Assembly (NCBI GenBank): GCA_038046685.1
Contig: JBBSVT010000007.1
Coordinates: 1-59,043 of the forward strand
DNA from: Nanobdellota archaeon
Lineage (GTDB): Archaea > Nanobdellota > Nanobdellia > Woesearchaeales > GW2011-AR4
Direction: 5' to 3'
DNA length: 59,043 nucleotides
Position numbers and translations under genes: made by a program. Below the pieces are notes generated by a model, which was given only the letters and a program-made list of their open reading frames with translations, had not been told where the DNA came from and did not search any database. Positions 6,657-57,169 of the stretch are shown piece by piece; position 1 is the stretch's first letter; every line of letters starts with the position of its first letter.

Positions 6657-6693
6657 AAATGTGGAAAGAAATAGGTATATTATAAAATTAATG

Positions 6694-7176
6694 TTAAATT
6701 TTCGGCGTCAAGCTGGAATAATCTATACAACTTCTTACCTTATCCCATTTTGCTATTTGCATAAATTTATTTGTTTTTGTTCCAAATTTTAATACATCCT
6801 CTCGTCTGAGAACATTAAACAAATGTGATAATCTGCCTAATCCTTTAGACGAAACTAATAAAGATTCTATCGGATCTATTAATTGAGTGTATCCCCAAAG
6901 CTGTCCTAAATCTTTAAGAGTTAATTCAGTATCTTTTACTTCAACAAAAACAAGTTTAAACTCATCGCCTCTTTTCAAAATTCCTACAACATCAACTTTT
7001 ATTTGCAGTCCTATCGCTTCTTTGCATTGAATTCCCTTACTTTTCAAGACTACATCTAAATTTCTTCTTGAAGTTTCAAAAGTAGTTTCGACAGTATGAC
7101 CTTTGTATTTATCTGTTAAATAATTCTGCAACCATTCTTTTATTTCAGGATATAGTTTTTCTTCTTCTTTACTCAT
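6694..7176 (-). CDS. small PD-(D/E)xK-fold protein, candidate nuclease subunit
   Basis: The 160-aa ORF overlaps the upstream gene by 8 nt. IKVDVVGIL...KLVFVEVKD gives a D-x(n)-E-x-K arrangement on predicted beta strands. Confidence 0.45.
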   Translation of the reverse strand: MSKEEEKLYPEIKEWLQNYLTDKYKGHTVETTFETSRRNLDVVLKSKGIQCKEAIGLQIKVDVVGILKRGDEFKLVFVEVKDTELTLKDLGQLWGYTQLIDPIESLLVSSKGLGRLSHLFNVLRREDVLKFGTKTNKFMQIAKWDKVRSCIDYSSLTPKI

Positions 7177-8113
7177 CGTAACCTAACTCCTTTGACATAT
7201 CTTTCCAATTATCAAAATGTTTTCTCATTTTCGATGGCAGTTTCGTGCTTTTTTCTTCTGGATGGTTGGGCTTTTTCCTGTTTATCTCTTTCGTTTCCCA
7301 ATAAAATTTATGATGTACTTCCGAAATTGGCTTATCTCTATATTTTTTAGAATCCTTTGATGCTTCTTTCCAGTTTTTTCTGTTTAAGTCAGCAAATTTT
7401 TTAAGAATTTTATTTTTATGGTCAATATTAAAACCAACTTTCTCAAATTCTTCAGCCCAAACTTTAATTTGATGTTCCTTATTCCAGAACTCTTTTGAAC
7501 CTTCATTATATTTTTTCAAATTTGGATCAACTATATTTGGATGAGCAAATCTGATTGTTTGAACTGGAACTTCCAACTCTTTTAACAGGTTTGCAATATC
7601 TACGCATAAGTCCCAGTTTACCATTATCTCAACATAAACTCTATTTTCATAATCTTTCCATGCAACATTACTTTTTCTTATATGTGCTGTAACATCGGCA
7701 ACTCCTCTTAAAAATTCCAACTTTACATCTTTTGTTGATGAAAAAATTTCTGCTGGTATCCTAAAATCTCTCCAACTAACATTATTTTTTAAATATGTAT
7801 TAATTGTTCTTATGAGATAATCACCATTAGGTTTTGAAAAAGAAATATGAGCTAAATTTTGTCTTGATGTGTCCCATTCCATATCTGTTCCAACAAGAGA
7901 TTTTAATCTGCCTACAATATCCAATAAACTTGACTTTACTGATTGTTGTGTATTTTCTCCTTCAATTACTAAGTTTTTATGAGGTATGTCAATAATAATC
8001 TCAGTATTTCTGTTTCCTCTAATTACTTGCCCTTTTCCAACAATCATCCCCAATAAGTAAGCTATATCTGGATTTAACATTTTATCACTTCCTAAAGATG
8101 AGTATGAACTCAT
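7169..8113 (-). CDS. LAGLIDADG-like two-motif protein lacking the catalytic acidic residues
   Basis: In the 314-aa ORF, AYLLGMIVGKGQV and, about 110 aa later, EFLRGVADVTAHI...YVEIMVNWDLCVDIANLLKELEVPVQTI mirror the double LAGLIDADG architecture. The catalytic Asp positions are K and T. The true start may be the internal Met at 8080 (MLNPD), which would remove the overlap with the MTase gene. Confidence 0.4.
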   Translation of the reverse strand: MSSYSSLGSDKMLNPDIAYLLGMIVGKGQVIRGNRNTEIIIDIPHKNLVIEGENTQQSVKSSLLDIVGRLKSLVGTDMEWDTSRQNLAHISFSKPNGDYLIRTINTYLKNNVSWRDFRIPAEIFSSTKDVKLEFLRGVADVTAHIRKSNVAWKDYENRVYVEIMVNWDLCVDIANLLKELEVPVQTIRFAHPNIVDPNLKKYNEGSKEFWNKEHQIKVWAEEFEKVGFNIDHKNKILKKFADLNRKNWKEASKDSKKYRDKPISEVHHKFYWETKEINRKKPNHPEEKSTKLPSKMRKHFDNWKDMSKELGYDE

Positions 8114-8885
8114 GAACTTTATTTACTCTGAAAACGAACGGATAACCAAGAGGTCTCATGTTGTTGTATTCTTTTTGCCTGTCCCAAATGATAATATCAT
8201 CTAATTCAAAACCAATTTCTTGCATTTTGTTTACTACATCCATGTGGAATGGATAAAACTTTGCTTTTTTTCTTATATCCATCACAACAACAATACAATA
8301 TTTTCCTTTCTTTAAAACTTTGTAGACTCCTTCAAATCCTGTTTTGAGCTTATTTAAAAATTCTTGATAATCTGCGATATTTCCTAAATCTTCCTTTGAA
8401 TCGCTATAATTTCTTATCTCTTTTCCATCAGCAGACCTTTTAGCGTTTAGAATATCCCAATATGGCGGAGATGTAATGACTAAATCAACAGAATTTTCTT
8501 TAAGTGTTTTAGGAATATCAAATATAGTTTTATTATAAATTTCAGGCTTTATCAAGTCCTCTGGCTTTTGTTCTAAATTTAACTGAGTTTCTTTTATTCT
8601 ACTTTCGGATAATTTAATGTATTCTTTAGAAAGCTCGAACCCTATTCCCTTTCTACCTAATTTATAGGCAGATACAACTGTGCTTCCGCTTCCTAAAAAT
8701 GGATCTAAAACAACCTCTCCTTTATTTTTGGTATGAATCTGAATTAATCTTGATATTAATTGTGTTGGAAACATTGCAGGATGTTTTAGCTTTCGTTCTC
8801 CGTTGGTTTTCTCAATATCTTTCCAAATACTAAAAGAGTATTGTAACCAAGTTTTCCCATCCAAATTATTCATTTTTTCGCCCAT
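8085..8885 (-). CDS. DNA methyltransferase, N4-cytosine or N6-adenine (N6_N4_Mtase family, SPPY type)
   Basis: The 266-aa ORF has HPAMFPTQLISRLI...VVLDPFLGSGSTVVSA (AdoMet motif I region) at the N-terminus. It has DLVITSPPYWD (motif IV) about 80 aa later. Confidence 0.85.
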   Translation of the reverse strand: MGEKMNNLDGKTWLQYSFSIWKDIEKTNGERKLKHPAMFPTQLISRLIQIHTKNKGEVVLDPFLGSGSTVVSAYKLGRKGIGFELSKEYIKLSESRIKETQLNLEQKPEDLIKPEIYNKTIFDIPKTLKENSVDLVITSPPYWDILNAKRSADGKEIRNYSDSKEDLGNIADYQEFLNKLKTGFEGVYKVLKKGKYCIVVVMDIRKKAKFYPFHMDVVNKMQEIGFELDDIIIWDRQKEYNNMRPLGYPFVFRVNKVHEFILIFRK

Positions 8886-8886
8886 T

Positions 8887-10554
8887 TTACCAAAAACTCC
8901 TCTCTGACATAATTTGCTTTAAAGCAAAATTTACTTTATTTTGTTCATTTTTAGTCATACCGTACAATTTATAGACTTTCTTGTCTAACTCAGACAATTT
9001 TTCTTTTAAGTTTTCTTTGTTAATTTTTTTTACAATGTCCATAATCTCTTTTTGAATTTTTTTACTGGCTTTTTTGATGGGAATTTTTCCCAGATAAACT
9101 TTATCAGTGTGCATCGTAAGTTTAGATTTATTGTAAACAGCATATAGAAGATAAAAATTGATTAATTTTGAATTTAGCAAACCATAAATGTAATCTAATT
9201 GATAAGAGTTATCTTTCAAAATGATATTGCTGACAGTATCAAAATTAAGATTTCCTTTTTCATCTATGGATGAAATAATCCCTGCTTCGCTTGAAAAGAT
9301 ATTTTGTAGAATTATTTTTCTCTTTTGAAATTCGTCTATTTTTGAAGAATTGCTCTTTAGTTTGTCTATATCAATAAAAAACCCATTCGAATAGGAAGAT
9401 TTAGAGATATCATTTCCTTTAATTATGGAAATGCTCTCCTTGCTTTTTGATTTAGATATTATCTGAGAATTTGGGCTTATTGAAAGTCCTCTAAAAATAT
9501 CCGCAATACTTTCTAAATTTTCTCCTTTGATTTTTTCTATTAAATCATAATAGGTTTTATCTTCAAACATTAAGAAAGTGTTATATTTCTGGAATATCTT
9601 TTGAGGCACATAGAACTCTTTATTATTATCAAATAAACGAATCAAAACTTTATTATTTTTTATTGATTTTTTTTTGCTTGTTTTCTGCACAAATAAAACT
9701 ATTTGCTCTCCTCTGACATCCTTAAAACAAGTCCCAAGATCAAAAATGTGCAGTATTTTTGAATTGCTTAATAAGAATTCCCTTAATCTTGAATATGAAT
9801 TAACTCTAATTAATGTTTTAGGCAAAACAAAAGCCATCACTCCTCCATCTTTAAGAAGTTCGTAAGATTTTGCAATTACCAAAGACGCCGCATTTGTGCT
9901 TCCATTTGCGATTTGAGAAAAGAAAGACTCGTTTACATCATAATCTCTTTTGTTTTTTAAAGTTACATATGGAGGATTGCCAATTATAAAATCAAAACCG
10001 CCTTCATTAAGAATTTCTGAAAACTCTTTTTTCCAGTTAAATGCTTTTTTATCAATAAACCTTTTTTCAACGATGGAGTTTCCAATTTTAATATTTTTTT
10101 CAAGAATATTTAATGAGTTTGAATCTTGACCATTTCTTAACCATAAGTTTATTCTTGCTATTTTAGTTGCCGAATTATTTAAATCAACACCATAAATATT
10201 ATTTAGGGCATTTGAGTTTATCTGTTTTAGATGATTATATGCCGTTACCAAGAAAACGCCACATCCGCAAGTTGGATCTAAAATTTTAGAATCTTGTTCA
10301 ATATTAAGAAAATTTACAATATAATTAACTATCTCTTGTGGAGTATAAAATTGTCCCAAATCTTTTTTTTCTTGCTCTCTTATCAGTTTCTCAAACAGAA
10401 CTCCTAAAGTATCTTCTTTTATTTTTGTTAGTTGCTCTTGTTCAATCTTATTTACAACTTTGTTTATTATTTTATCTTTATATGGTAAAGACTCTAAAGT
10501 ATCTTTGCTTAAATAAAAATTCTCTTGTGTAAGTGGAACTAAAACAGCATCCAT
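8887..10554 (-). CDS. gamma-class N6-adenine DNA methyltransferase (Eco57I/TaqI-like) with a TaqI_C-type specificity domain
   Basis: The 555-aa ORF carries FYTPQEIVNYIV, ILDPTCGCGVFLV, FDFIIGNPPYV and C-terminal IYGLLNSKLINFYL. Confidence 0.9.
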   Translation of the reverse strand: MDAVLVPLTQENFYLSKDTLESLPYKDKIINKVVNKIEQEQLTKIKEDTLGVLFEKLIREQEKKDLGQFYTPQEIVNYIVNFLNIEQDSKILDPTCGCGVFLVTAYNHLKQINSNALNNIYGVDLNNSATKIARINLWLRNGQDSNSLNILEKNIKIGNSIVEKRFIDKKAFNWKKEFSEILNEGGFDFIIGNPPYVTLKNKRDYDVNESFFSQIANGSTNAASLVIAKSYELLKDGGVMAFVLPKTLIRVNSYSRLREFLLSNSKILHIFDLGTCFKDVRGEQIVLFVQKTSKKKSIKNNKVLIRLFDNNKEFYVPQKIFQKYNTFLMFEDKTYYDLIEKIKGENLESIADIFRGLSISPNSQIISKSKSKESISIIKGNDISKSSYSNGFFIDIDKLKSNSSKIDEFQKRKIILQNIFSSEAGIISSIDEKGNLNFDTVSNIILKDNSYQLDYIYGLLNSKLINFYLLYAVYNKSKLTMHTDKVYLGKIPIKKASKKIQKEIMDIVKKINKENLKEKLSELDKKVYKLYGMTKNEQNKVNFALKQIMSERSFW

Positions 10555-10700
10555 TATTTAACCCCTTTCTTAACTTCTTTTTCCATATAATTTTGAAATT
10601 GCTTTGAAACAATCCATCCTTTTTTATCGCACTCCTCTTTAAATTTATCATAAATTTCAGAATCCACAAATAAAGTTACTCTTTTTTTAACCATCATCAT
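10554..10700 (-). CDS. 48-aa ribbon-helix-helix (CopG/Arc-like) leader protein of the RM-like operon; not in the ORF track
   Basis: The reverse strand reads ATGATGATGGTT...GTTAAATAA, giving MMMVKKRVTLFVDSEIYDKFKEECDKKGWIVSKQFQNYMEKEVKKGVK. Its TAA stop shares an A with the ATG of the 555-aa MTase (TAATG). It is about 51% identical over 43 aa (hand alignment) to the small ORF at 55238-55390. The pattern is beta strand, helix, helix. Confidence 0.6.
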   Translation of the reverse strand: MMMVKKRVTLFVDSEIYDKFKEECDKKGWIVSKQFQNYMEKEVKKGVK

Positions 10701-10706
10701 CCCCTT

Positions 10707-10722
10707 TATGTAAGCTTACATA
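10707..10722. promoter_or_regulatory. perfect 16-bp palindrome TATGTAAGCTTACATA just upstream of the RHH gene (candidate operator)
   Basis: The palindrome was read directly. It ends 6 nt from the first ATG of the RHH ORF and abuts the G-rich AAGGGG element. Confidence 0.4.
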
Positions 10723-10862
10723 AGATTATTAACACATCCCTATATAAATCTTACGCATACTTGTCCAGTGGCAAGTGCTAAAAGACGCCCTAGATGTTCT
10801 TTTTAGAAAAGAACCAAAACAAGACACTCCTTCTATCTTCTTTTTATAAAAAGAAGCAAAAA

Positions 10863-10909
10863 ACGGAATTCCCCCCTACGACGAAACGACGGACTGAAAA
10901 TTGCCCCTT
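10863..10909. repeat. right boundary repeat block of the RM-like island
   Basis: acggaattcccccc (10863-10876) and gaaaattgcccctt (10896-10909) are reverse complements of the left-block elements. The direct copy of acgaaacgacg lies at 10881-10891. The block is preceded by a hairpin at 10796-10814 and a perfect 20-nt palindrome cttctttttataaaaagaag at 10837-10856. Confidence 0.6.
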
Positions 10910-11243
10910 GATACTTATTCTTGATGGCTCACTGTGTTCGCTTGATTGAATACGCCCCTGAAATTACTTTGATTTTTTGCCTTCGGCATCGTTGCACTAA
11001 AAATCAATTCCTCCAAGTATTCGGACGAATAGAACAGGAATTTAACGGTTCCGAAACCTTGCAGGTTTCTCCACCCAAATTTTGCCCCATCTCTGAAAAT
11101 TTCTCCAGCTCTGTTCGGATTTTCCAGCTCTGAACTGCGGTTCGAGGGAAAATCCTCACGAGGTCGAAATTTTCGAGGGGTCAAAACTTCGTTAAATTCC
11201 GATGTTAAATGCAATTAAATTTAAGTTTTCCTTTTTTATGAAT

Positions 11244-46192: not shown

Positions 46193-46852
46193 TTAATAGG
46201 GTATTTTCCTCCATTTGCAAAAATCACACTCTTTTGTGCAATTTGGCATATCTTCTTCTAAGATTTTTAAGGCATTTTTTATTATTTTTTCAGCATTGCT
46301 TATTGAAATGCCCATTTTAATTAAGTCTGTATGGAAAATAATTTCGCCTTCTGCATTTACCTTATCAGGATGGTAAAACAATAAGTAAGAGTAATTTTCA
46401 GTTTCATAGTCATTTTTTCTTAATAAAAAGTTGTAAATATCTAATTGGTCTTGATAATGGTTCGCAGTATCCTCTTTTAATGGATAGCCTCTCGTTTTGT
46501 AATCCAACACTATCAGTTTATCGCCCTTTTGCAATATATTATCAATTGCTCCCCTGAAAAGATTGCCATTTTCATCATTCCATGTTATTCCTTTAAGATT
46601 GTTTCTCCAAACTTTTAATAACTCAATATTATCAAATAGTTTTACATGTCCATTTAATTTTTCAAGCTCAGGCGGTAATAATCCCTTGTCTCTAAATGAA
46701 TCAAAATGAACTTTTAATATTCTATCCATTCCAGAAGGCAAAGAAGGAAAAATTGAATCTGGCCTTTTGATGCTCTTATTGAAATGAAGCCAGAAGCATC
46801 TAGGGCACTCCTTCAAAAGACTCAAACTTGATGGGCTGAATTTGTATGGCAT
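46193..46852 (-). CDS. Cas4/RecB-like PD-(D/E)xK nuclease with predicted Fe-S cysteines
   Basis: The 219-aa ORF has N-terminal SLSLLKECPRCFWL, GAIDNIL...LIVLDYKT (D...D-x-K), a RecB-type QLDIY motif and a C-terminal CTKECDFC cluster. Confidence 0.65.
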   Translation of the reverse strand: MPYKFSPSSLSLLKECPRCFWLHFNKSIKRPDSIFPSLPSGMDRILKVHFDSFRDKGLLPPELEKLNGHVKLFDNIELLKVWRNNLKGITWNDENGNLFRGAIDNILQKGDKLIVLDYKTRGYPLKEDTANHYQDQLDIYNFLLRKNDYETENYSYLLFYHPDKVNAEGEIIFHTDLIKMGISISNAEKIIKNALKILEEDMPNCTKECDFCKWRKIPY

Positions 46853-46857
46853 TTTGT

Positions 46858-48459
46858 TTAGCTTAAATTGTATTTTTCGCTTGCTAAAGTATTAATCATC
46901 TTTATACATTCAACTAAGATATTCTCAAAAACTTCTTTGAAGTTATTATTCAACCCAAACTTCTTTTTCGTATCTTCATAATTGTCTCCTTTTCTATGGG
47001 CTGAGCCAGTTGAACGGAGATTCTGCAAATTCTTCAAAAAATCAATCATGTCCGGAAAATAGAAATTATATCTTTGTACAAGATGCTTTTTGAAAACTTC
47101 AATACTTTGATCATTCTTCTTAAGCAGGAATTCTTCTTTTACTGATGTTTTAAGTTCTTCTTTCGATTCTTCTGAGATTAAGCCACTCTTTAGTTCTTTT
47201 ATATTTATTGAATCAATTATTATCTTTGTTAATGCTTGTACTAACTCGTCGAACTCTTTTTGAGATTCTTTAGTTGGTATCCTCAAAGTTTGATAATAGT
47301 GTTCATCTTCTTTATTCAACGGTAAAAATAGATGCCATCCATATTTTTTATACCATTTTTCTTGAAAGACTTTAAATTTTTGCTTGAAGTATAGGTCTGC
47401 GGTATCAGGATCACAAAACTCCGCCATAAAACTACGTTGGAAGCAACTATGACTCATTTTTCCATCAGTAATGGTATTATACTGTTTCCAATGCTTCTGT
47501 TCCTTATTTGAAAGATGACCCAAATCGCCTAGAAAGACCATTACATAATCTTTATGGCTATTGTCCATGCGTAACCCCCATAATACATGACAACTCAAAT
47601 AACCATCAGATACAGAATATTTTTCTGGCTGGTTGTAATATTTATCTAATACTTTTTTTTCAAAAAATGTAGGGGTTAGGTAATGCGGATTGCCTTTATT
47701 GGCACCAAAGTAATTTGCTAAATGCTTTTCATCACATGTAAAACTTTTTTTATTACTATCTTCATCCAACCCAACAAAAAATTCTTCGAATTCTTTTTCT
47801 TCGGAAAAGAGTTTTGATTTAAAAGAATCAGTAACTGAAATTATCTTCTTACCCATCACAATAGAGATGGATTTTTTTCCTTTAAACAATTGGGAATCAT
47901 TATTTAAAAATTGATGATAAATAAATTTATCACTTTCCTTTTTAAGATCGATTTTCTTTAGCCCTAAGTCTTCTATAGTATTATCTGAATACCTAATAAA
48001 ATCAAAAAATTGAGCTAAAACTAACTTTTTTGCAAAGAGATATTCTTTAAGGAACAATTTTTTGATTTTTACTTCTTTTTCAGATATAACAATTACCTCT
48101 TCTTCATCACCATTGTTATCTATATGTATAAATCTATTATGTTCTTTGTCTTCATATAAATTGAAGAAAATCTTAATATTTTCACATAATTCCCAATATT
48201 CTTTTTTAATACCATGAAATTGCCTTCTAATCAAAATTGGAATCACGTTTTCTGAACCATAAACATCATCTATGTGGAAATCCCAACTGTATTCTTTTAA
48301 TGACTCCTTCACATATTCTTTTTTTAATAAACAAGAATAGATAACTAAGTTATCATTTTTATCTTCTATAGATTTGTATAAGAAAGTCCAAGCGTCAGTA
48401 TCTTCACTTTCAAAAAAATCTGTCCAATCTTTAAATTGCATAAGTTCTGCTTCGTTCAT
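46858..48459 (-). CDS. 533-aa protein of unknown family with a C-terminal HEPN-like Rx5H motif
   Basis: It shares an ATGA start/stop overlap with the MTase gene and lies 5 nt before the Cas4-like gene. NLRSTGSAHRKG is at residues 480-491 (codons R482 = 47014-47016, H488 = 46996-46998), inside a helical C-terminal region. Confidence 0.6.
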   Translation of the reverse strand: MNEAELMQFKDWTDFFESEDTDAWTFLYKSIEDKNDNLVIYSCLLKKEYVKESLKEYSWDFHIDDVYGSENVIPILIRRQFHGIKKEYWELCENIKIFFNLYEDKEHNRFIHIDNNGDEEEVIVISEKEVKIKKLFLKEYLFAKKLVLAQFFDFIRYSDNTIEDLGLKKIDLKKESDKFIYHQFLNNDSQLFKGKKSISIVMGKKIISVTDSFKSKLFSEEKEFEEFFVGLDEDSNKKSFTCDEKHLANYFGANKGNPHYLTPTFFEKKVLDKYYNQPEKYSVSDGYLSCHVLWGLRMDNSHKDYVMVFLGDLGHLSNKEQKHWKQYNTITDGKMSHSCFQRSFMAEFCDPDTADLYFKQKFKVFQEKWYKKYGWHLFLPLNKEDEHYYQTLRIPTKESQKEFDELVQALTKIIIDSINIKELKSGLISEESKEELKTSVKEEFLLKKNDQSIEVFKKHLVQRYNFYFPDMIDFLKNLQNLRSTGSAHRKGDNYEDTKKKFGLNNNFKEVFENILVECIKMINTLASEKYNLS

Positions 48460-51400
48460 TTGTCATCTCCAAACTCCTCAACAATCTTAATTTCTTCAGG
48501 AGTTAATTCATAGAGCCTGTAAACAAGCTGATCAATTTCTTTTTCAAGCTTTTTGACTTTGGATTGTTTGGTTGAATTGTCTAAATAATCTGTATCTTTA
48601 GTGAATAAGAGAATCTGATTGACGAGATGGATTATGGGTTGTTGAATTTCTTTTTTCTTTAACTTTTCATGGATTGGTAATGTTTTAAGAAATGTCCCCG
48701 CATAAAACCTATAGCCGTTTTGCCTAATCGGACAAACAATTTGATAGTAAAACTCAGCAAGTTTACTATTCAATAATCCGAGAAGGATTAAATTATTTAT
48801 ATAATCATCAATTGAATAAATTGAATATATACTCCCTCCAGTGAAGAATAACCCTTCCTTATCCAAACAAAACTCATTTTTTTTACATAAAGCTTGTGTT
48901 AGTATTTTCTCTCTTATTACCTTTTCAAAAGAGGAATGTCTCATTAAACCATACCAATAACTTCCTTCTTCAGATAAATCAGTACGAGAATCTTTTCTTT
49001 TTTCCAATAGAGATTTATTCTTTCTTAAATATTCATAAACTTTAGGGGATTGTTTTTTTAATTCATTTTCTTTAACAAGTATAGTTTTATTATTCACTTT
49101 TGTATAGGGGTATATTACAAAAAAGTTAGTTTTAGATAAATGGTACTTATCCGTCTCCGATGGTCTTAATAGTGCGAAAACAAATGGTTGATTCTCCAGA
49201 TCCTTATATTTTCCTTTTTTAAAAACAAGAATCTTGTCAGAGCCAGTTACCAAACCATACTCAATGTTAGCGATATCGTTCAAAATATTTTTTGAAGTAT
49301 TCTTTAATTTATTGACGACTCTAATGTTATCCATGTTTTCTAGCTCCCAAGAATTGTCTGTAAGACTATCCTTCATTATTTTATAATTGTTTTTTAAAAT
49401 ATAAATTGATAAATTTTCATTTAGATTAAAATTTTCAGCATTAGAAAATAAGAAGTAATCCATATCATTATCTTTGACGAAAGAAAAAACAGATGTGTAA
49501 TTGGTTGCAGATTCAAAAATCTGATTGTCTCCAAAATAGACCATAGAATTAAGAGGATTTTTCATTATTTCCCTTATTCTCCTGCCATATTCTGTTTTTG
49601 TGAATTGTGAAGATGTTATGAATGTAGCAAAACCTTTATGATTAACCAATTTAAAACTTAATTCAATAAATAATATTGAGACATCTATTCTTTTGTAAGC
49701 ACTGTAATAAATTTTTTTGTATATGTCTATCTCCTCATGAGATAAATTCTGAACTCTGACATAAGGTGGATTAGCAATCACCACATCAAATCCCGGATTC
49801 TCTCTCTGAAAAACTTCCGCAAAGTACAGCTTCCATAAAAAGAATGGCTTGGATTTGTTTTTCTTGTACTGCTGCAATTTCTTCATCGCTTCTTCGTTGC
49901 CTTGTTCTTTTAGTGTTTCCTCAACTAATTCCCATTCAATCCTTTCAATGTTATCTCTGTACTGTTTCTTGAGTTTCCTGTTTTGCTCGTTAAAGAATTT
50001 CTGTTGTAATTCCCTTAATTCTTTAAGCTTCTTCTGTGATTCCTTAATTCTTTTTTGCAATGAATCACCAATAGTTGCTTGCTGCACTTGTTCTTTTGGC
50101 GTAGAAAGTATCTGCTCTTTCTTTTTTTGTAACTTCTTTATTTCGTTTACAATATCTTTGCTCCTGCCATTATGATTCTTAATCTTGCCTGTGTGTATCT
50201 GATGTAGTTCCTGATTAAGCTTTGAAATCTCTGCATTAATCTGCTTTACCTCAAAAGAATAATCCTTTTTTACTTCTCCAAGTAGCTTGTCATCAAACAG
50301 CTTTACTCCTTCAAACTCCTCAAGCAAGCTGTTGCCGCACATTATCTTATGGTCTAAGTTTGGCAATGGCTTTATGTTTTTCATGTCCAACTCATCAACG
50401 ATCAAAGAAAGCCAGAATCTCAACTTTGCTATGTCCACAGCAGAAGAGTCTATGTCAACACCATACAAGCAATTCTCAATCACTTCCCTTTTCAAGCTGT
50501 AGTTTGTCCTTTCTTTTTGCTCTTCATCATTAAAGAATATGCTTAATATGGACCTTGCCTTAACTATTTCGTTCATCATTCCTACAGGGAATGCTCCTGA
50601 ACCGACAGCTGGGTCAACTATCTTGATATTCTTTAATAAGTCATCAATCTTCCTATAATTTTCCCTGATTGATTTAGGCAATTTATGCTCTTTATCAGAA
50701 ACATAAGATCGCCCATATCTTTTCACATTTTCCTTTTCTTTGACTAAAATATCGATGGCAAAATCTCCAAGCTGTATGAATTTTTCAATATCTTTCCTAT
50801 CAATCCCAGAATTTGTTTCCAGATAGTTAATTAGCGACTGCTGGCACATATAATGCACTATTTCTCTTGGAGTGTAATAGGCGCCTTGCCCTTTCCTGAT
50901 ATTTTCTTCAATAAGATTTTCAAATACTTTACCAAGCATTTCAGGATCGATGGCAACTTCTTTTTCCAAAGGCTCGTCTTCCTTGACTGTGAAGTTATAT
51001 TTATCAAAAGTATTCAAAATGTTCTCGAAAATTGGGTTATCTAATAGTAAATCAGTTTCACGCCAATTGTATTCATTTATTGGCTCAAACAAGCCTCCAT
51101 TTAAGAAAGGTATTTTGCATTCAAACCTGCTGTAATAATCATCATCTCTTTCTGTTGCCAAAGCCTCATAAAACAATGGCTCTAAAACATCATTAAAGAA
51201 ATTTTTATAATTTTTCTTCTCAAAGAGCTTTCTTAAGAAATTCTTAGGCCCAGAGCCCCAACCCATAAACTTTCCAGACTTGTCTTTCTGGACTCCAAGC
51301 CAGCCTTTTTTCTGCAGGAAATAAATAAATACTATCTGTCCAAGCAATTTCTTGGCAAAATCAACAGTAGATATTGCATTTTCCTCAAATTCCTTTCTGA

Positions 51401-52049
51401 TAAAAGAATCTTTATTAATATGCCTCTCCAAAGCATCCTTAAGTTTCAAATAAAGCTCTTTGTACTCAGTAAAGAACTCTTTAGTAACCTTATCAATGCT
51501 GAAAGCCTCTTCAATCTCCCCTACAGATGGATTTATTTCATCTTCCATCACCAATTCCAAGAATTGTCTTTTGCATGTATGATTTGGCTCATTTATGCCC
51601 ACTAGAAATGAGTACCTTTTAGCTGGCGTTAATTCTTTTGCAACTTTTGCCTTTCCTTCTTCATCTTTCAGAAGGTTATATTCCATCTTTACAAATGAGA
51701 AACGCCAGTCTTCATCATCACCATAAAAAGCAACAAGTGCAGCATCCTTGTCAGCATTGCCTAAATATTTGGCAATGAAATTTCTTTGCATTGTCCTTGC
51801 CCTGTCGCGGGAACTTGTTCTTTTTAATTTGACAATTAAAACATCAATAACCTTTTTTGATTTGTCCGTATAGCTCCCTATAGAATTATAAGATTCAATA
51901 TAATCCTGGTACTCATTCCAGACTGTCCAGCTTTTTTGGTTTATATTGAAATTGTTAAACAATTCCTTGATAAATTTCGCAAATCTGTGAGTATCAAAAT
52001 CATTGCTAAAAGTTTCATCTAGCAGTTTTATGGCGTTTTGTTTATCCAT
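48456..52049 (-). CDS. large Eco57I/PglX-like gamma-class N6-adenine DNA methyltransferase with a TaqI_C-type target-recognition region
   Basis: The 1197-aa ORF carries GAYYTPREIVHYM, IVDPAVGSGAFPV and YGVDID. A roughly 150-aa K/E/Q-rich coiled-coil insertion is followed by FDVVIANPPYV, then LLGLLNSKLAEFYY. Confidence 0.85.
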   Translation of the reverse strand: MDKQNAIKLLDETFSNDFDTHRFAKFIKELFNNFNINQKSWTVWNEYQDYIESYNSIGSYTDKSKKVIDVLIVKLKRTSSRDRARTMQRNFIAKYLGNADKDAALVAFYGDDEDWRFSFVKMEYNLLKDEEGKAKVAKELTPAKRYSFLVGINEPNHTCKRQFLELVMEDEINPSVGEIEEAFSIDKVTKEFFTEYKELYLKLKDALERHINKDSFIRKEFEENAISTVDFAKKLLGQIVFIYFLQKKGWLGVQKDKSGKFMGWGSGPKNFLRKLFEKKNYKNFFNDVLEPLFYEALATERDDDYYSRFECKIPFLNGGLFEPINEYNWRETDLLLDNPIFENILNTFDKYNFTVKEDEPLEKEVAIDPEMLGKVFENLIEENIRKGQGAYYTPREIVHYMCQQSLINYLETNSGIDRKDIEKFIQLGDFAIDILVKEKENVKRYGRSYVSDKEHKLPKSIRENYRKIDDLLKNIKIVDPAVGSGAFPVGMMNEIVKARSILSIFFNDEEQKERTNYSLKREVIENCLYGVDIDSSAVDIAKLRFWLSLIVDELDMKNIKPLPNLDHKIMCGNSLLEEFEGVKLFDDKLLGEVKKDYSFEVKQINAEISKLNQELHQIHTGKIKNHNGRSKDIVNEIKKLQKKKEQILSTPKEQVQQATIGDSLQKRIKESQKKLKELRELQQKFFNEQNRKLKKQYRDNIERIEWELVEETLKEQGNEEAMKKLQQYKKNKSKPFFLWKLYFAEVFQRENPGFDVVIANPPYVRVQNLSHEEIDIYKKIYYSAYKRIDVSILFIELSFKLVNHKGFATFITSSQFTKTEYGRRIREIMKNPLNSMVYFGDNQIFESATNYTSVFSFVKDNDMDYFLFSNAENFNLNENLSIYILKNNYKIMKDSLTDNSWELENMDNIRVVNKLKNTSKNILNDIANIEYGLVTGSDKILVFKKGKYKDLENQPFVFALLRPSETDKYHLSKTNFFVIYPYTKVNNKTILVKENELKKQSPKVYEYLRKNKSLLEKRKDSRTDLSEEGSYWYGLMRHSSFEKVIREKILTQALCKKNEFCLDKEGLFFTGGSIYSIYSIDDYINNLILLGLLNSKLAEFYYQIVCPIRQNGYRFYAGTFLKTLPIHEKLKKKEIQQPIIHLVNQILLFTKDTDYLDNSTKQSKVKKLEKEIDQLVYRLYELTPEEIKIVEEFGDDK

Positions 52050-55000
52050 TCTTAATCAGATACTCAGATAGAATTACTTCTTTAGGGCCTGAAATATCAG
52101 CTGAGCCCTTGGCAAATGTTCCCTGAAACACACTGGGCGATATTCCAGATTTGACCTTTGCAAGTATTTTGAGAGGATTTATCTCGTTGCCAATTTCTTT
52201 AACTATTCTTTTTATTGTTGCTTTGGCAATTCCACCTTCTTTTAATATCCTTAAGACTTCCTGCAAATATTCCTCATCTTCATCAGTGAACTCTTTGGCT
52301 TTGATTATTGATTTAATTATCTTAATCAGTTTTCCTTCTTGGCTTCTTCCGCCAGCTGATTTAGGCTCATCTACCTCTTGGATGAATACTGCATCAAATT
52401 CTTTTTTATTTAATTCAAGATGCTTGTAGAATTCGGCATCCAATTTCTCCCGCTTTAATTCTTTTTCAGATTCCAGAAGTTTTGCCGCTTTAATAAAATC
52501 AATTTCATCAACAATGCTTCCATTAGTCATTAATATTTTTCTAAGCTTCCCTTTCCTGAAAAATGTTAAAACTGAATTTCCACTACCAGAATATTTTTTT
52601 GCGGTTCTTGCTTTTTTAGGCAGTTTCTTTATCTTCTCAACCAAATCCGGATTCTTGTCTCTTATTTCCCTTAAGAAAGTAAGATATCTTAGTTCAGTAT
52701 CATCTTCTTCATCTTCTCCAGTAATAATCTTTTTGGATGTTAATTTAGTAAACAAGTCATGGGACTTTACTTCTTCATCGGTAAGAAGCCTTGCATCATT
52801 ACCGAGCATCTCAATAAATGCTTTAATCTTTGATTCGGCTGCTTCTGTTAAGCTAATCTCTTGGTTTATAGGTCCTGCTGGGAAAAAATTATATGTGTAA
52901 ATTGTGCTATATGGTGGATTTTTGCTTACTCTATTCACACGACCAACTCTTTGCATCATTCGGACAGGATTCCAAGGAATGTCATAATTTATTACAACAT
53001 TTGAACGATGCAAGCTCACTCCTTCAGATAATATATCTGTTGAAATTAATATTCTAACGTCATCTTTCTGTTTGTGCTTAGGGTAATTTGCATCATAATT
53101 CTCAATGGTTCTCAATCTGTCTGATTCAGAAGAATTGCTTGAGAAAGCCATGACTTTATTGTCAAATTTAGGATTTAATTTTGCATAAAGATAGTCTGCT
53201 GTTTCTTTTGATTCTGTAAAGACTAATAGCTTATGCTCCTTGAGTATCTTTTCTTTGGATAATCTTTTAATAAACTCATCCAGCTTTGGATCTTCGTTTA
53301 CATTCTTCCACATTCCTTCAATTTTCTCAAGAAGCTTAAAATCATGCTCTAAATCCCTTATGAGATGCGGCAGGAAATCTTTGGAGGAATATTCAGAGGC
53401 TTTCTCGCTTTCAATTAATTCTTGTATTGCTTCCCTATCATCATCTTCAAGGAACTCAAAAATCTTATTGATATGTTTTTTGCTGACATACACTCTTCCT
53501 TTTTTGTATTCTTCAATAAATCGTTTATATGAATGAATAAACCTATTAACAGACATCTTAAACGCAAAGAAACTGCTCTCAAGCCTTTTAAGAAGCAATA
53601 TTTTCATGAACTTCCCCATGTTTTTCTGGGAAATTTCTTCGGGCTGGGAAATCTCTTTTTTAGCAGGGTCTAGGTATAATAAGGGCGTATATCTTGCATA
53701 TTTGAATTCCTTAATAATAAGCTCAAGAGTCTTATTGAAAATCTTATCCAACTCTTCGTTAAAATGATAGACTATTGGCTCAGGATCAGCCACATCAGGA
53801 AATTTTAAGCCTTGAGTTTGCAAGTCTTTTCCGTAATATTTAGAAATGTTGTTTCTTGTCCTTCTAACCATTAGATGATGCAAAACATTTTCTCTTATGT
53901 CTTCAGCATTTTCCTTTATTATCCTTAAATATTCATCTTTATCTTTTTGCCTATTAAGACCTTTAAGATTATTTTGAAGTTTCTTAAAGTATTTTTCCAA
54001 GTCCCTAACTTTTGGGCTTGGAAGTGTTGACTTATGGGCGTATTGGAATAGCTTTATTTGGCTTAAAATATCTAAAGGAGTATTATTAAGTGGAGTTGCT
54101 GAAACAAGAATTACTCTTTTTCCTCTGCAAATCTCAAACAGCTTTTCATACATTTGAGTTGATTCTGTTCTGAATCTATGTGCTTCATCAATGATTATAT
54201 TCTTATATTTTTCAGTTCCTCTTTGAATTACTTTATCAAGCATCCCAATTGACTCATACTCTGCTTGTCTGACTCCAAACTCATAAAATACATTTCTCCA
54301 AGAGCCAGGATTATCCTTATCAAGTAACGTGGGGGGAGCAATAACTAATGTTCCGCCATCTAATTGCAGGGCAAGCATTGCAGAAACAAATGTCTTCCCT
54401 AAACCAACAACATCAGAAATAAACACGCCGCCATATTCACTTAATTTCATCTTTGCATCTATAACAGCATCTTTCTGATATTTTAAGTCCATAAAATTTT
54501 CGGGAAGATAGTCTTTGAAAATATCCTCTTGGTCAATATTGATTTTTTCTTTCAAAAATTCATACAAAAACTTTAAGTATAATTCGTATGGTGTTATTTC
54601 ATCATTCAGCCAAGTTTTATTCTTGATTGTTTCAACATATTTTTCAGAAACATCAACAGCATTTTCCCAAAGCTCATTGAATTTCTTTAGCGAAAATTCA
54701 TAATCAGAACGGTTTTTCAATTCAACATTAAACTCAATATTATCTCTTAATCCTGATTTTGTAAAATTGCTTGAGCCAGTTATTACTCTTCCAACATCCC
54801 TGTCGCCTTCTTTAAAAGTCATTATGTATAATTTTGCGTGAATTGTATCAGCAGGATATACTTTTATCTCCAGTTTGCCAGACCTAAGCCATTCAATAAA
54901 TTTGTGAATCCCTTCTTCGATATCATAAGAATCTTTTGAGGACTCCATTTCTTGCACAATTTGGCTAGTAAACTGTTCTTTAGTTTCCTTAGTAGAAGAG

Positions 55001-55248
55001 GGCAATGTCTGCTGAACTTCTTTCTTAGACTCAACTAATAATCCAAAAGTTTCTTTGTCTGTACTAATCCCAATCAAAACCCTGATTTTTTCTGTTTTTT
55101 CTAATGATTTATAGATGCTGTAAAAACCGCTTGTATAGAAATATCCAACTAAACAATCAAAATAACGAGTATCTTTTATAAGAGTAACAAACCTATTTAA
55201 TAAACTCTTACCTTCTTCATTAGTTATGAAGGTTAAATCACTTGACAT
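52042..55248 (-). CDS. PLD-family nuclease domain fused to an SNF2/SF2 helicase
   Basis: The 1068-aa ORF has N-terminal FDCLVGYFYTSGF and TIHAKLYIM...VITGSSNFT (a single HKD-like motif, H137/K139). Helicase motifs are VVGLGKT, IIIDEAHRF, LVSATPLNN, ILISTDILSEGVSLH and MQRVGRVNR. Confidence 0.85.
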   Translation of the reverse strand: MSSDLTFITNEEGKSLLNRFVTLIKDTRYFDCLVGYFYTSGFYSIYKSLEKTEKIRVLIGISTDKETFGLLVESKKEVQQTLPSSTKETKEQFTSQIVQEMESSKDSYDIEEGIHKFIEWLRSGKLEIKVYPADTIHAKLYIMTFKEGDRDVGRVITGSSNFTKSGLRDNIEFNVELKNRSDYEFSLKKFNELWENAVDVSEKYVETIKNKTWLNDEITPYELYLKFLYEFLKEKINIDQEDIFKDYLPENFMDLKYQKDAVIDAKMKLSEYGGVFISDVVGLGKTFVSAMLALQLDGGTLVIAPPTLLDKDNPGSWRNVFYEFGVRQAEYESIGMLDKVIQRGTEKYKNIIIDEAHRFRTESTQMYEKLFEICRGKRVILVSATPLNNTPLDILSQIKLFQYAHKSTLPSPKVRDLEKYFKKLQNNLKGLNRQKDKDEYLRIIKENAEDIRENVLHHLMVRRTRNNISKYYGKDLQTQGLKFPDVADPEPIVYHFNEELDKIFNKTLELIIKEFKYARYTPLLYLDPAKKEISQPEEISQKNMGKFMKILLLKRLESSFFAFKMSVNRFIHSYKRFIEEYKKGRVYVSKKHINKIFEFLEDDDREAIQELIESEKASEYSSKDFLPHLIRDLEHDFKLLEKIEGMWKNVNEDPKLDEFIKRLSKEKILKEHKLLVFTESKETADYLYAKLNPKFDNKVMAFSSNSSESDRLRTIENYDANYPKHKQKDDVRILISTDILSEGVSLHRSNVVINYDIPWNPVRMMQRVGRVNRVSKNPPYSTIYTYNFFPAGPINQEISLTEAAESKIKAFIEMLGNDARLLTDEEVKSHDLFTKLTSKKIITGEDEEDDTELRYLTFLREIRDKNPDLVEKIKKLPKKARTAKKYSGSGNSVLTFFRKGKLRKILMTNGSIVDEIDFIKAAKLLESEKELKREKLDAEFYKHLELNKKEFDAVFIQEVDEPKSAGGRSQEGKLIKIIKSIIKAKEFTDEDEEYLQEVLRILKEGGIAKATIKRIVKEIGNEINPLKILAKVKSGISPSVFQGTFAKGSADISGPKEVILSEYLIKNG

Positions 55249-55390
55249 TTTTTTGCCCTCTTTTATCTAACTCTAATTCCATGCACTTCTCAAACTGCCT
55301 TGAAACAATCCAGCCTTCTTTTTTACATAGTTCCCTGTATTTATCGTAAAGTTCAGTATTTACTTTCAAGGTAATGTTTTTTGTTGTCAT
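55238..55390 (-). CDS. 50-aa ribbon-helix-helix leader protein, paralogue of the 10554-10700 ORF
   Basis: MTTKNITLKVNTELYDKYRELCKKEGWIVSRQFEKCMELELDKRGQKNVK overlaps the helicase gene start by 11 nt. The track version starts 10 codons upstream at 55420, which cannot be excluded. Confidence 0.6.
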   Translation of the reverse strand: MTTKNITLKVNTELYDKYRELCKKEGWIVSRQFEKCMELELDKRGQKNVK

Positions 55391-55454
55391 ACCCTCCCCA
55401 AGTAATGCAAATAACCGCACATATTTATAAATGTTTTTGTAGGATATTGCAGAC

Positions 55455-55841
55455 TCAAATAATAATCTCCCCTACCTTCCCCAAATCCCTCTGCTTCAAA
55501 ACCATCACTTTCATATTTGCAGCTGCCAATATCATTAGTTTTCTTTCAAACTTTTCATTATATTCAGGATCATCCATACCTTTGTATTCAACGATCAAGC
55601 CGTTCAATCCCGGCAAGATAAAGTCGGGTCTAATCCATTCTCCGTCTATTTCAATCAAAGAATCATAAACGTAGTCAATTCCGCATTCATAAATTCTGTC
55701 AGCAATTATTCTCTCGCCTTCTGATTGCACTCCATGCCCTGCTTTTGCCATGAACTTCAGATTCTTTTCTATTTCTTTGTTGAATTCTTCTCTCATACTC
55801 ACAGAATTGGTCACGTGTTTGAAGGTTTGGAGTAAGCTCAT
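55455..55841 (-). CDS. Vsr/DUF559-like PD-(D/E)xK endonuclease-fold protein
   Basis: SEGERIIADRIYECGIDYVYDSLIEIDGEWIRPDFILPGLNGLIVEYKG fits the E...D-F...(I/V)E-x-(K/D)G layout of DUF559/Vsr-like domains. Confidence 0.45.
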   Translation of the reverse strand: MSLLQTFKHVTNSVSMREEFNKEIEKNLKFMAKAGHGVQSEGERIIADRIYECGIDYVYDSLIEIDGEWIRPDFILPGLNGLIVEYKGMDDPEYNEKFERKLMILAAANMKVMVLKQRDLGKVGEIII

Positions 55842-55861: not shown

Positions 55862-56404
55862 TCATTCCGTTGCTTCTTTCGGAATCTTGAATTCTCTTTT
55901 GCTGAAGATAAGCTCTTCAGTTTGGGCTATGCATGTTTTGCAGCGTTCCATCATAACATCATACTTCTCAACTATCTCGCTGTCTTTAACTTTTGACCCA
56001 TATCGAGCTTCTTCGCGCTCATCAACATCTGTCTTTTTTTCTATTTCGCTGTGAACAGTGATTCTGTCTATGAAATCATCGTCTAGCATTATCAGGTTAG
56101 CATCTTTAACATAGCGAAGAAATAAAGCTGTGCATTTTTGGCTTCTGCTTTCAATGCCGAATTCCGATAAAATGGCAAGAGCGCAGTAATAAATTGTGTA
56201 AAACCATTCTTCCGGAAGCTTGTAATCAGCCCCTTCTTTTTTGTATTTTTCACACCATTCTAGATTCTCTTTTGCTTTTTTAATGTATTCTAATGCCTGC
56301 TCATGATTCGGCTCTGCAACTAATAAGCCCTTATGCTTTTTGCCCTTCTCCTCATCCTTTTTTGCATTTATGAAGCAATTCCTTACCTTTTCAAACACGC
56401 TCAT
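55862..56404 (-). CDS. HEPN-domain protein, copy 3
   Basis: The 180-aa helical protein has ALEYIKKAKENLEWCEKY...YYCALAILSEFGIESRSQ...REEARYGSK (R..A.YG block). It overlaps the upstream MNT gene by 4 nt. Confidence 0.6.
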   Translation of the reverse strand: MSVFEKVRNCFINAKKDEEKGKKHKGLLVAEPNHEQALEYIKKAKENLEWCEKYKKEGADYKLPEEWFYTIYYCALAILSEFGIESRSQKCTALFLRYVKDANLIMLDDDFIDRITVHSEIEKKTDVDEREEARYGSKVKDSEIVEKYDVMMERCKTCIAQTEELIFSKREFKIPKEATE

Positions 56405-57030
56405 TTTGACACTCCATGCAGCTTTTTCATGAATTTTATGAATTCTTCCTGCCCGAAAAGGACAACGCCTTTCTTAACTGCCTCAACAAAAGCCTTGTTT
56501 GGCTTTAAAAGTTCTTCTCTAAACTCTGATTCAGTAAAATTTATTGAATGAATGCGCTTGGATTCGCTTTTTTGGATTTTATCAAGCGATTCGTGAAGCT
56601 TTTTAAAGCTTTTTCGGTCTGGAATGATGCCAATAACATCAATGTCTTTAGCTTTTGCATATGAGCTTAATACGCTTCCATAGAGAATGAAAAAGCTTAC
56701 ATGCTCCTTGACTTCTATAAAATTAAAAGTCCATCGTTGATAGTCCATAGCTTCCCTGCTTAAAGCCAAATCCAAGTATTTATCCAACAAATCATTCTTA
56801 AAATTAAGTTTCGGGACAATTAAGCTTGTCTCCTTTCCAGTTGGCTTCATAATAACATACTTTTCCTGCTCTAAGCGCTTCAAAACCTTCCATATCCCGC
56901 TTCTTGTCATGCCCAATTCTTTCCCAATTGAGGTTATAGTGTGCATAGTAGAGAAATCCTTAAGCAGTAGCAATACGATTCGCATTTGATGAGACATAAT
57001 TGTTTCCATTTTGGATATAATTGTTTCCAT
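56401..57030 (-). CDS. wHTH plus nucleotidyltransferase (MNT-type antitoxin), copy 3
   Basis: The wHTH is ITSIGKELGMTRSGIWKVLKRLEQEKYV. The NTase motif is FILYGSVLSSYAKAKDIDVIGII. The start was trimmed to the ATG at 57030 because a TATA-like tataaatatcc lies inside the longer track ORF. A second identical ATG context is at 57009. Confidence 0.65.
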   Translation of the reverse strand: METIISKMETIMSHQMRIVLLLLKDFSTMHTITSIGKELGMTRSGIWKVLKRLEQEKYVIMKPTGKETSLIVPKLNFKNDLLDKYLDLALSREAMDYQRWTFNFIEVKEHVSFFILYGSVLSSYAKAKDIDVIGIIPDRKSFKKLHESLDKIQKSESKRIHSINFTESEFREELLKPNKAFVEAVKKGVVLFGQEEFIKFMKKLHGVSK

Positions 57031-57122
57031 ATAGGAAATAAGGATATTTATATACTTTTCGGTTTTAAATTTACCAAAAAGGCACGATTTACCAAATGGT
57101 AAATCAATGCCAAATACCATCA

Positions 57123-57169
57123 ACTATCTTAAAAAAAGATAGTAGTATCTAAAAAAGAGATACCTACTA
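57123..57169 (-). terminator. two adjacent hairpins with A/T-run loops
   Basis: The arms are actatctt/aagatagt (57123-57143) and tagtagtatct/agatacctacta (57140-57169, one bulge). On the minus strand each is followed by T runs. They lie downstream of the lipoprotein gene cluster and upstream of the MNT3 promoter. Confidence 0.35.

Follow-up and report, generated by a model that had tools for sequence, protein, structure and literature searches.

The window analysed here is a stretch of 59,043 nucleotides (nt) of the archaeal contig JBBSVT010000007.1, and our subject is a run of five genes on its minus strand (genes 1 to 5; Table 1). They encode a ribbon-helix-helix (RHH)-like protein, a phospholipase D (PLD) nuclease fused to a SNF2 ATPase of superfamily 2 (SF2), an N6-adenine methyltransferase (MTase) with a target-recognition domain (TRD), a protein that matches no family model, and a Cas4/RecB-like nuclease. 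Comparison across genomes identifies genes 2 and 3 as an obligate pair, a conserved two-gene module that probably acts as an ATP-dependent Type I-like restriction–modification (RM) system, with genes 4 and 5 as independent neighbours.

The five open reading frames (ORFs) and their four junctions coincide exactly with those given in an earlier note on this DNA, made from its letters alone. In the six-frame ORF list genes 1 and 2 overlap by 11 nt (55238-55248), genes 2 and 3 by 8 nt (52042-52049) and genes 3 and 4 by 4 nt (ATGA, 48456-48459), and a gap of 5 nt (46853-46857) separates gene 4 from gene 5. The TATA-box-like element TTTATAAATA and a GGAGGG element lie upstream of gene 1 and are likely the archaeal promoter and ribosome-binding site of the run, an arrangement that fits a single archaeal transcription unit beginning at gene 1. 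A scan of the window for bacterial promoters and terminators stayed at chance level (46 promoters found against 46.6 expected) and was uninformative. The GC content is 0.288 in gene 4, 0.284 in the TRD of gene 3, 0.330 in gene 2 and 0.345 in the N-terminal part of gene 3. Start/stop coupling in one genome is no evidence for a functional system.

Table 1 Coordinates of the five genes and their parts in the window (aa, amino acids).
Feature	Position	Strand	Description
TATA-box-like element	55422..55431	(-)	TTTATAAATA; ~35 nt before the ATG of gene 1; direct sequence reading
Shine-Dalgarno-like element	55392-55397	(-)	GGAGGG; upstream of the gene 1 ATG
Gene 1, RHH-like	55238..55390	(-)	50 aa; ATG at 55390 within ORF 55238-55420
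Gene 2, PLD-SNF2	52042..55248	(-)	1068 aa; single-HKD PLD nuclease and SNF2/SF2 ATPase
PLD/HKD nuclease domain of gene 2	54667..55113	(-)	aa 46-194; PLDc_2 aa 46-194, RE_NgoFVII aa 104-197
SF2/SNF2 ATPase core of gene 2	52921..54483	(-)	aa 256-776; ResIII 256-386, SNF2-rel_dom 319-471, Helicase_C 667-774
Gene 3, N6-adenine MTase and TRD	48456..52049	(-)	1197 aa; gamma-class
N-terminal domain of gene 3	51540..52049	(-)	aa 1-170; family-specific, strongly conserved
MTase catalytic region of gene 3	49515..50957	(-)	aa ~365-845; coiled-coil-like insert of ~130 aa
TRD of gene 3	48660..49502	(-)	aa ~850-1130; hypervariable, low GC
Gene 4, family without a model	46858..48459	(-)	533 aa; GC 0.288
Gene 5, Cas4/RecB-like PD-(D/E)xK nuclease	46193..46852	(-)	219 aa; Cys clusters

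The locus proteins were compared with the profile libraries of Pfam, NCBIfam, PADLOC and PHROGs. Gene 2 matched PLDc_2 (6.4e-10), SNF2-rel_dom (2e-8) and Helicase_C (3.3e-19) in Pfam, the PADLOC 'HKD+Snf2' model C3a139 (1.4e-45) and, over its full length, phrog_26785 (1e-262); C3a139 derives from a survey of genes beside type III CRISPR cassettes (PMC6546367). In the alignment of its homologues the HxK and GSSN elements of the nuclease and ATPase motifs I, II, III and VI are invariant, with conservation of 97-100% at H137, K139, G158-S-S-N161, GxGKT, DEAH and QRxGRxNR among 73 sequences. Single-HKD enzymes such as Nuc and BfiI must dimerise to form an active site, and the lone HKD motif of gene 2 means that its active site would need dimerisation as well. 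Gene 2 is predicted to be the restriction subunit of the pair, a translocase joined to a nuclease. Its viral carriage amounts to one viral contig, phage matches in GenBank stay at or below 27% identity, and plasmid records hold only distant relatives (at most 36% identity) in different arrangements.

Gene 3 carries Eco57I (3.6e-31; aa 526-845, on a 171-position profile) and TaqI_C (1.4e-9; aa 1004-1126) matches and a weak MmeI_Mtase match (1.2e-7; aa 464-579), and its MTase region aligned to the CamA structure 7lni. These searches also bear out the PLD, SNF2, Eco57I-type MTase, TaqI_C and PDDEXK_1 domain calls of the earlier note, and every motif it quoted is found in the translations. DPAxGSGAF and NPPY are conserved in 100% of 56 homologues. 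Gene 3 is predicted to be the modification and specificity subunit of the pair. The PADLOC model REase_MTase_IIG (PDLC03596) matches over the whole length, residues 1-413 included, at 2.4e-202; the other PADLOC type IIG models align from about residue 230 onward only, which marks the first ~170 residues as family-specific.

That N-terminal part is strongly conserved in the alignment, with R85, R89, W115, R116, S118, R145, S147, E154, H157 and T158 invariant and D62 nearly so. A PD-(D/E)xK remnant had been read into its 'IDVLIVKLK', and neither the alignment nor the fold and profile searches substantiated it. No conserved D...(D/E)xK was found in the alignment of the ~170 residues, and an AlphaFold2 (AF2) model of residues 1-410 (pLDDT, the predicted score of the local distance difference test, 78.7) gave no Foldseek match in the PDB at E<1e-3 and did not retrieve the solved structures of type IIG/IIL enzymes or PglX. 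A profile of the N-terminus searched against PDB sequences aligned nothing before position 328. The candidate reading of this region as a PD-(D/E)xK nuclease was therefore left unsubstantiated on all four counts. Given an N-terminus with no nuclease match and an obligate helicase-nuclease partner, the most economical reading is a coupling domain that stands in the nuclease's place and communicates with separate helicase and nuclease functions, as proposed for YeeA (PMC2731913).

The opposite behaviour is seen toward the other end of the protein. Identity to relatives is 60-85% over aa 1-800, falls to 15-29% over aa ~800-1100 and rises again at the C-terminus; a single close relative (L022) is without the drop. 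A divergent TRD in an otherwise conserved protein is the signature of TRD swapping in RM systems under diversifying selection. We also considered programmed inversion, a TRD shufflon of the kind described in PMC9881135, and found neither substantial inverted repeats nor spare TRD copies in the window. The best database matches to the gene 3 N-terminus are mostly 'partial' proteins ending at 400-720 aa, which suggests that metagenome assemblies often break within this gene, near the hypervariable TRD. Strain heterogeneity or, possibly, programmed inversions of the PMC9881135 type may be the cause.

The linkage of the two genes was followed from both sides. With gene 2 as bait we obtained 127 species-level relatives, full-length and 52-92% identical, and kept 80 loci. 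These relatives range over DPANN archaea, methanogens, Thermoplasmata and many bacterial phyla; the closest, at 92% identity, belongs to a Woesearchaeota metagenome-assembled genome, and for this reason the window itself is probably of Woesearchaeota (DPANN) origin. Of the 80 loci, 74 have a gene 3 homologue as the next gene downstream of gene 2; the other six stop at contig edges, so that all 74 informative loci agree. A homologue is also present in the cultured Methanogenium marinum DSM 15558 (L044). The junction is an overlap or a gap of at most 5 nt in about 50 loci and holds an insert of 0.8-2 kb in about 20. Using a family-specific alignment of the gene 3 N-terminus as the bait gave at least 563 species-level matches; 79 loci were examined, 74 of them with enough upstream DNA, and 72 of these have gene 2 as the immediate same-strand neighbour upstream. 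This reciprocal, near-invariable adjacency, together with the retained catalytic motifs, upholds the earlier suggestion that a methylation and specificity module is coupled to a translocating PLD nuclease. Motif conservation (97-100%) and TRD hypervariability also indicate that neither the MTase nor the helicase is degenerate.

All-against-all clustering of neighbouring ORFs revealed no third gene family recurring in more than 10 of the 80 loci, and since no third gene recurs, the conserved system is a two-gene module. A hidden third core gene was sought in the same clustering, and DUF499, DUF3780, DrmA/B and PglZ were all missing from it. The inserts found between or after the pair elsewhere (SLFN/AlbA_2, DUF1016/YhcG, ORF6N, Bro-N, KilA-N, RhuM, prokaryotic Argonaute (pAgo) with SIR2, AAA_13) are accessory genes of the kind common in RM loci. 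A protein of ~898 aa that recurs upstream in three loci proved to be a P-type cation ATPase. In two bacterial loci, L055 (9915-13240) and L064, a short pAgo (Piwi) and SIR2 pair follows immediately 3' of gene 2-gene 3. In two archaeal ones, L017 (1749-2951) and L018, a different PDDEXK_1 nuclease of 400 aa (4.5e-34) stands just upstream of the pair. With gene 5 of the window, these loci show that a minority of lineages have RecB/Cas4-like nucleases close to the pair, those of L017 and L018 not being orthologous to gene 5. An apparent synteny of two window ORFs (495 and 459 aa) with locus L007 was discarded, the equal lengths being coincidental and without homology.

Gene 4 behaves differently from the pair. 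It was found in 0/80 loci of the gene 2 bait and 0/79 of the gene 3 bait (0/159), and its homologues, including those 56-66% identical, stand alone or beside unrelated systems. The earlier note had called its product an unrecognisable orphan. The first half of the description stands, as no match was obtained in the four profile libraries, but it is no orphan: its close homologues number at least 392, and the family forms 2,589 clusters at 50% identity. Among the 150 best matches listed, nearly all are ~540 aa long and none is annotated. Across 11 annotated neighbourhoods no habitual partner appears. Homologues follow a type III-like RM system and Mrr, lie beside GmrSD, type I RM and Hachiman genes or between SLFN/AlbA_2 genes, and also occur in a mobilisable element next to HipA, beside integrases and among housekeeping genes. 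Of the relatives retaining gene 5, the closest (L011, L012 and L026) have in the gene 4 slot a small unknown protein and a GHKL/MORC-like ATPase, or an OloA-like protein. Viral carriage of the family is limited to seven distant viral contigs. Gene 4 is thus evolutionarily independent of the pair, though co-oriented and start/stop-coupled with it here.

The AF2 model of gene 4 (pLDDT 91.4) consists of a beta-rich part (residues 1-310) and a helical part (318-533). In the first part, alignment and model together place conserved residues (E93 in a helix, D114-x-N-G-D118 ahead of the strand at 119-125, E129-x-K131-x-K133 on the one at 129-133, with helix 134-144 after it) where they fit a PD-(D/E)xK core on an alpha-beta-beta-beta-alpha topology. 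In the all-helical C-terminal domain, R482-x5-H488 is invariant in 64 sequences of the family. By Foldseek the best PDB match is Avs3 (8dgc_A, E=5e-4 over 200 columns, the aligned part of Avs3 not being reported by the tool), and matches to HepT/HEPN toxins are weak (probability 0.30-0.38); no Pfam HEPN family matched the 64 members even at E<=1. On the strength of the model, gene 4 is probably a nuclease of PD-(D/E)xK type whose helical C-terminal domain is HEPN-like and carries the Rx5H motif, both assignments being tentative. Fusions of restriction endonuclease (REase) and HEPN domains within RM operons are a documented theme (PMC3710099). Membership of the family in a known one was pursued through Pfam scans of the 64 members at E<=1, PDB profile searches, Foldseek against BFVD and scans of atypically long members, which yielded only a PNP_UDP_1 fusion: P0303, of 857 aa, carries an extra C-terminal domain of this phosphorylase superfamily (4.2e-12). 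PNP_UDP_1-type domains serve as effectors in some defence systems. Being large, well folded, without a model and recurrent in defence islands and mobile elements, the family offers a tractable single-gene defence candidate, and gene 4 is a candidate stand-alone nuclease-type defence gene.

Gene 5 is mostly unlinked as well. It matches PDDEXK_1 (8.6e-12) and phrog_31195 (5.8e-41) and falls short of the Cas4 equivalog level, at 30.2 bits against a cut-off of 65 for TIGR00372. No CRISPR-like repeat array was found in the window and no cas-like gene recurs beside its 39 homologues, which are 38-80% identical and have variable neighbours: type I RM, Fic, MazG-like with a SLFN-type helicase, N6_N4 MTase, RadC and tRNA synthetases. 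Gene 5 accompanies the pair in 5/80 and 4/79 loci (9/159), and of 43 gene 5 loci just 3 hold gene 2 or gene 3. Start/stop coupling of gene 5 (gap of -8 to +8 nt) to an upstream same-strand gene was seen in 15 of 37 loci (L091-L130), and the genes so coupled represent ten or more unrelated families, Fic and a GHKL ATPase among them. This pattern suggests a precise insertion point upstream of gene 5 or a generic 'last gene' helper role. In the window, housekeeping genes (purD, the 5-FTHF cyclo-ligase gene and purF) lie beyond it. Gene 5 behaves as a conserved archaeal gene that borders a variable defence hotspot, not as a component of the pair.

Gene 1 reads as strand-helix-helix and reaches the RepB-RCR_reg family of the Pfam RHH proteins below threshold (E=0.0065; 16.8 bits, cut-off 21). 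Only close archaeal relatives have a homologue of it ahead of gene 2 (6/80 and 3/79 loci), and it is probably a lineage-specific transcriptional regulator of the module.

Together these observations point to a division of labour in which gene 3, by means of its swappable TRD, would read an asymmetric DNA target and would methylate adenine in the host's DNA. Its N-terminal ~170 residues, which occupy the position of the nuclease in type IIG enzymes, would couple the MTase to gene 2 by docking or communication. When gene 3 meets an unmethylated site, gene 2 would hydrolyse ATP and translocate, and cutting would follow once two HKD domains meet as a dimer. Gene 1 would act as a lineage-specific regulator transcribed from the TATA-like promoter just upstream. 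Gene 4 may be an independently mobile single-gene module that came to occupy the slot for variable cargo downstream of the pair, and gene 5 a conserved Cas4-like gene marking the edge of the insertion hotspot.

Such a division between an MTase and a translocating nuclease has a precedent. Morgan et al. (2009) described MmeI homologues that lack PD-ExK and always have helicase and nuclease genes beside them, and proposed a 'Type I-like' RM system (PMC2731913); YeeA alone had no endonuclease activity (PMC2731913). The YeeA(DnmA)-YeeB-YeeC system resembles our pair in its large single-chain gamma-class N6-MTase with a TRD, in an N-terminus without PD-ExK and in the adjoining SF2 helicase and nuclease functions. 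Its logic is also alike, the MTase providing specificity and protection and the N-terminal domain recruiting the helicase-nuclease. Its nuclease, however, is a separate GIY-YIG/T5orf172 protein in a set of three genes, whereas here an HKD/PLD domain is fused to the helicase and there are two; its helicase lies downstream, whereas ours is of SNF2 type and upstream of the MTase. Gene 3 further departs from YeeA in being an Eco57I-family protein with a TaqI_C TRD, only weakly similar to MmeI_Mtase and lacking the MmeI N-terminal and TRD domains. No GIY-YIG gene was found among the locus proteins or recurrent neighbours, and the pair thus falls outside the YeeABC family.

Fusions of HKD and SF2/SNF2 domains are restriction components in PbeA/CxC-ABC (PMC10853773) and in Type-2 BREX-related systems (PMC12839542). 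The latter, Hma-like, systems share with the pair an HKD endoDNase, placed N-terminally and joined to a Swi2/Snf2 helicase, and an N6-MTase, and the PADLOC HmaA model matches gene 2 in part (3e-21). They are defined by a DUF499 AAA+ ATPase and have a DUF3780 protein in 98% of taxa (PMC12839542); here neither domain turns up in the locus proteins or among the recurrent neighbours of the 80 loci. Class 1 DISARM (DrmA, DrmB, DrmC-PLD, DrmD-SNF2, DrmMI) likewise includes PLD, SNF2 and long N6-MTase types, and DrmD and DrmMI are the best named PADLOC/NCBIfam matches after the IIG and C3a139 models. Here, however, PLD and SNF2 are fused in gene 2, which scores 115.7 bits against a cut-off of 610 for DrmD (NF038317); the DrmMI match of gene 3 is partial (1.1e-36, against 2.4e-202 for the IIG model), and none of eight locus proteins matches DUF1998 or DrmB, the mark of the DrmA/DrmB core. 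PglZ and BrxC/PglY of BREX are absent from the locus proteins and recurrent neighbours, and the best match of gene 3 to a PglX-type protein, BREX_2_MTaseX, reaches 93.6 bits (cut-off 400). The absence of DISARM, BREX and Type I/III RM cores, which the earlier note had already reported, was thus confirmed by profile searches of the locus proteins and by the neighbour clustering.

Type IIG enzymes (Eco57I, Cj0031-like) have an Eco57I-type MTase and a TRD in one chain, as gene 3 does, and automatic annotation usually files the module under this type, but gene 3 has no recognisable nuclease domain and has an obligate helicase-nuclease partner. By definition a type IIG enzyme is a single polypeptide and independent of ATP, and the genomic linkage of genes 2 and 3 runs contrary to this. 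Milman et al. (2023) listed Cj0031-like 'type II' RM coding sequences with an adjacent PLD (cd09178) and SNF helicase coding sequence (PMC9881135), apparently the same arrangement as our pair. The earlier note took the combination to be undescribed, but the pairing of genes 2 and 3 was noted there in passing, and its logic was anticipated for YeeA/YeeB/YeeC (PMC2731913).

Two further groups of enzymes couple a nuclease and an SF2 translocase to site recognition. In Type ISP enzymes (LlaGI/LlaBIII) an Mrr-type nuclease, a helicase, an MTase and a TRD are fused in one chain. SauUSI, a Type IV enzyme, has an N-terminal PLD and an SF2 helicase, the layout of gene 2; its cleavage needs PLD dimerisation, and it acts on modified DNA without an MTase partner. 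No sequence match to Type ISP enzymes or SauUSI was seen.

How far do other explanations account for the locus? Gene 3 might be a self-sufficient type IIG enzyme, with gene 2 a co-travelling accessory or back-up effector, for example one acting in the manner of SauUSI on modified or escaping DNA. The REase_MTase_IIG match (2.4e-202) does include the N-terminus, two solitary genes of the gene 3 family exist, a Cj0031-type enzyme has been reported to restrict phage alone (PMC4889913), and 'auxiliary/backup effectors' are common around BREX-like loci (PMC12839542). Yet no PD-(D/E)xK motif or REase fold was detected in the conserved N-terminus, the other IIG models leave residues 1-230 uncovered, and a reciprocal adjacency of 97% with start/stop overlap is far tighter than that of locus-variable accessory genes, which makes this account unlikely. 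The pair might also be no active defence at all, and instead an epigenetic MTase with a helicase-nuclease that is a relic or functions otherwise, as was concluded for DnmA-YeeB-YeeC of B. subtilis. Catalytic residues that are invariant in both proteins across archaea and many bacterial phyla, the swapping of TRDs and a position in defence islands with typical RM-linked cargo argue against this, as do Vibrio DnmA/YeeB homologues reported, in work cited in PMC9973331, to affect phage sensitivity; we consider it improbable despite the failure of dnmA-yeeB-yeeC to protect against plasmids or three phages (PMC7261158, PMC9973331).

The proposal of the earlier note, that all five genes are one hybrid restriction and abortive system in which methylation and a PLD translocase are joined by an HEPN-like RNase (gene 4) and a Cas4-like protein (gene 5), is still less probable and is largely refuted by comparative genomics. 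Co-orientation, overlaps or a 5-nt gap throughout, the single promoter-like element upstream of gene 1 and the invariant Rx5H of gene 4 are all compatible with it, and a minority of loci do have a PDDEXK_1 protein close to the pair (gene 5 and the 400-aa gene of L017 and L018). Baiting with gene 2, with gene 5 and with the N-terminus of gene 3 nevertheless led, each time independently, to its rejection. Gene 4 is in none of the 159 pair loci and solitary elsewhere, 40 of the 43 gene 5 loci have neither gene 2 nor gene 3, the closest relatives hold other cargo in the gene 4 slot, and the GC content of gene 4 is unlike that of the pair. The conserved linkage of genes 4 and 5 to genes 2 and 3 elsewhere, on which that note had itself staked the proposal, is not what the loci show.

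We therefore favour the two-gene, ATP-dependent Type I-like RM module with genes 4 and 5 as independent neighbours, and give it a probability of roughly two in three. Several points weigh against it. The best-studied analogue, DnmA-YeeB-YeeC of B. subtilis, gave no plasmid or phage restriction (PMC7261158, PMC9973331), a stand-alone relative of Cj0031 is reported to restrict phage (PMC4889913), and the PADLOC 'REase-MTase' model spans all of gene 3. A cryptic nuclease in the gene 3 N-terminus is conceivable, the missing fold match being a weak negative. Two of the 74 informative gene 3-family loci (L200 and L202) are without gene 2, the former truncated by the contig end, and genes 4 and 5 may have some lineage-specific interplay with the pair, given the translational coupling of all five genes in the window. 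In L202 a solitary gene of the gene 3 family (6001-9138) is preceded by ~1.5 kb with no ORF of at least 150 aa; the same Dehalococcoidia genome also holds a full pair (L170), and the solitary gene may be an orphaned MTase copy.

If the two-gene reading is right, many 'type IIG' calls of PADLOC, DefenseFinder and REBASE-style annotation are the specificity and modification half of a helicase-dependent system, the nuclease of which sits in an adjacent, usually unnamed 'helicase-related protein'. Censuses of defence systems and assignments of methylome motifs to enzymes would then change. The HKD-SNF2 fusion would be a third solution, beside Type I, Type ISP and YeeABC, for joining an MTase-TRD to a translocating nuclease, and it would link such solutions to the helicases of DISARM and BREX-related systems. 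A wider claim, which we advance tentatively and hold at slightly less than even odds, is that HKD-SNF2 proteins and IIG-like MTases form a distinct and widespread ATP-dependent RM class of two components in several hundred or more archaeal and bacterial species. In this class the N-terminus of the MTase would be a new coupling domain that licenses the PLD-SNF2 protein, and current tools would mislabel the system as single-gene type IIG; the gene 4 family would in addition be a new group of stand-alone nuclease-type defence genes.

The surroundings of the run make the locus a small defence island, which besides the five genes holds a nucleotidyltransferase with its partner and a small PD-(D/E)xK protein. 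The last of these, a nuclease-like protein of 128 aa, is encoded directly upstream of the five genes (55455-55841, minus strand) and matches only the C-terminal PD-(D/E)xK part of the PADLOC models HEAT_CxxC_PDDEXK and PDC-S68/S69 (9e-14 to 8e-7). Next to it (55862-57123, minus strand), a protein of 240 aa with a helix-turn-helix and a Pol-beta nucleotidyltransferase domain (PADLOC PDC-M05A, 3.4e-9) overlaps by 4 nt with a protein of 180 aa that belongs to no known family, and the two form a putative two-gene pair for defence or of toxin-antitoxin type. In L115 both have homologues (31-32% identity), situated ~4 kb from one of gene 5. Farther away, the stretch at ~6000-11000 has a GC content of 0.29 against the window mean of 0.34 and holds five ORFs in a row on the minus strand (5796-10554); this segment, too, may have been acquired horizontally.

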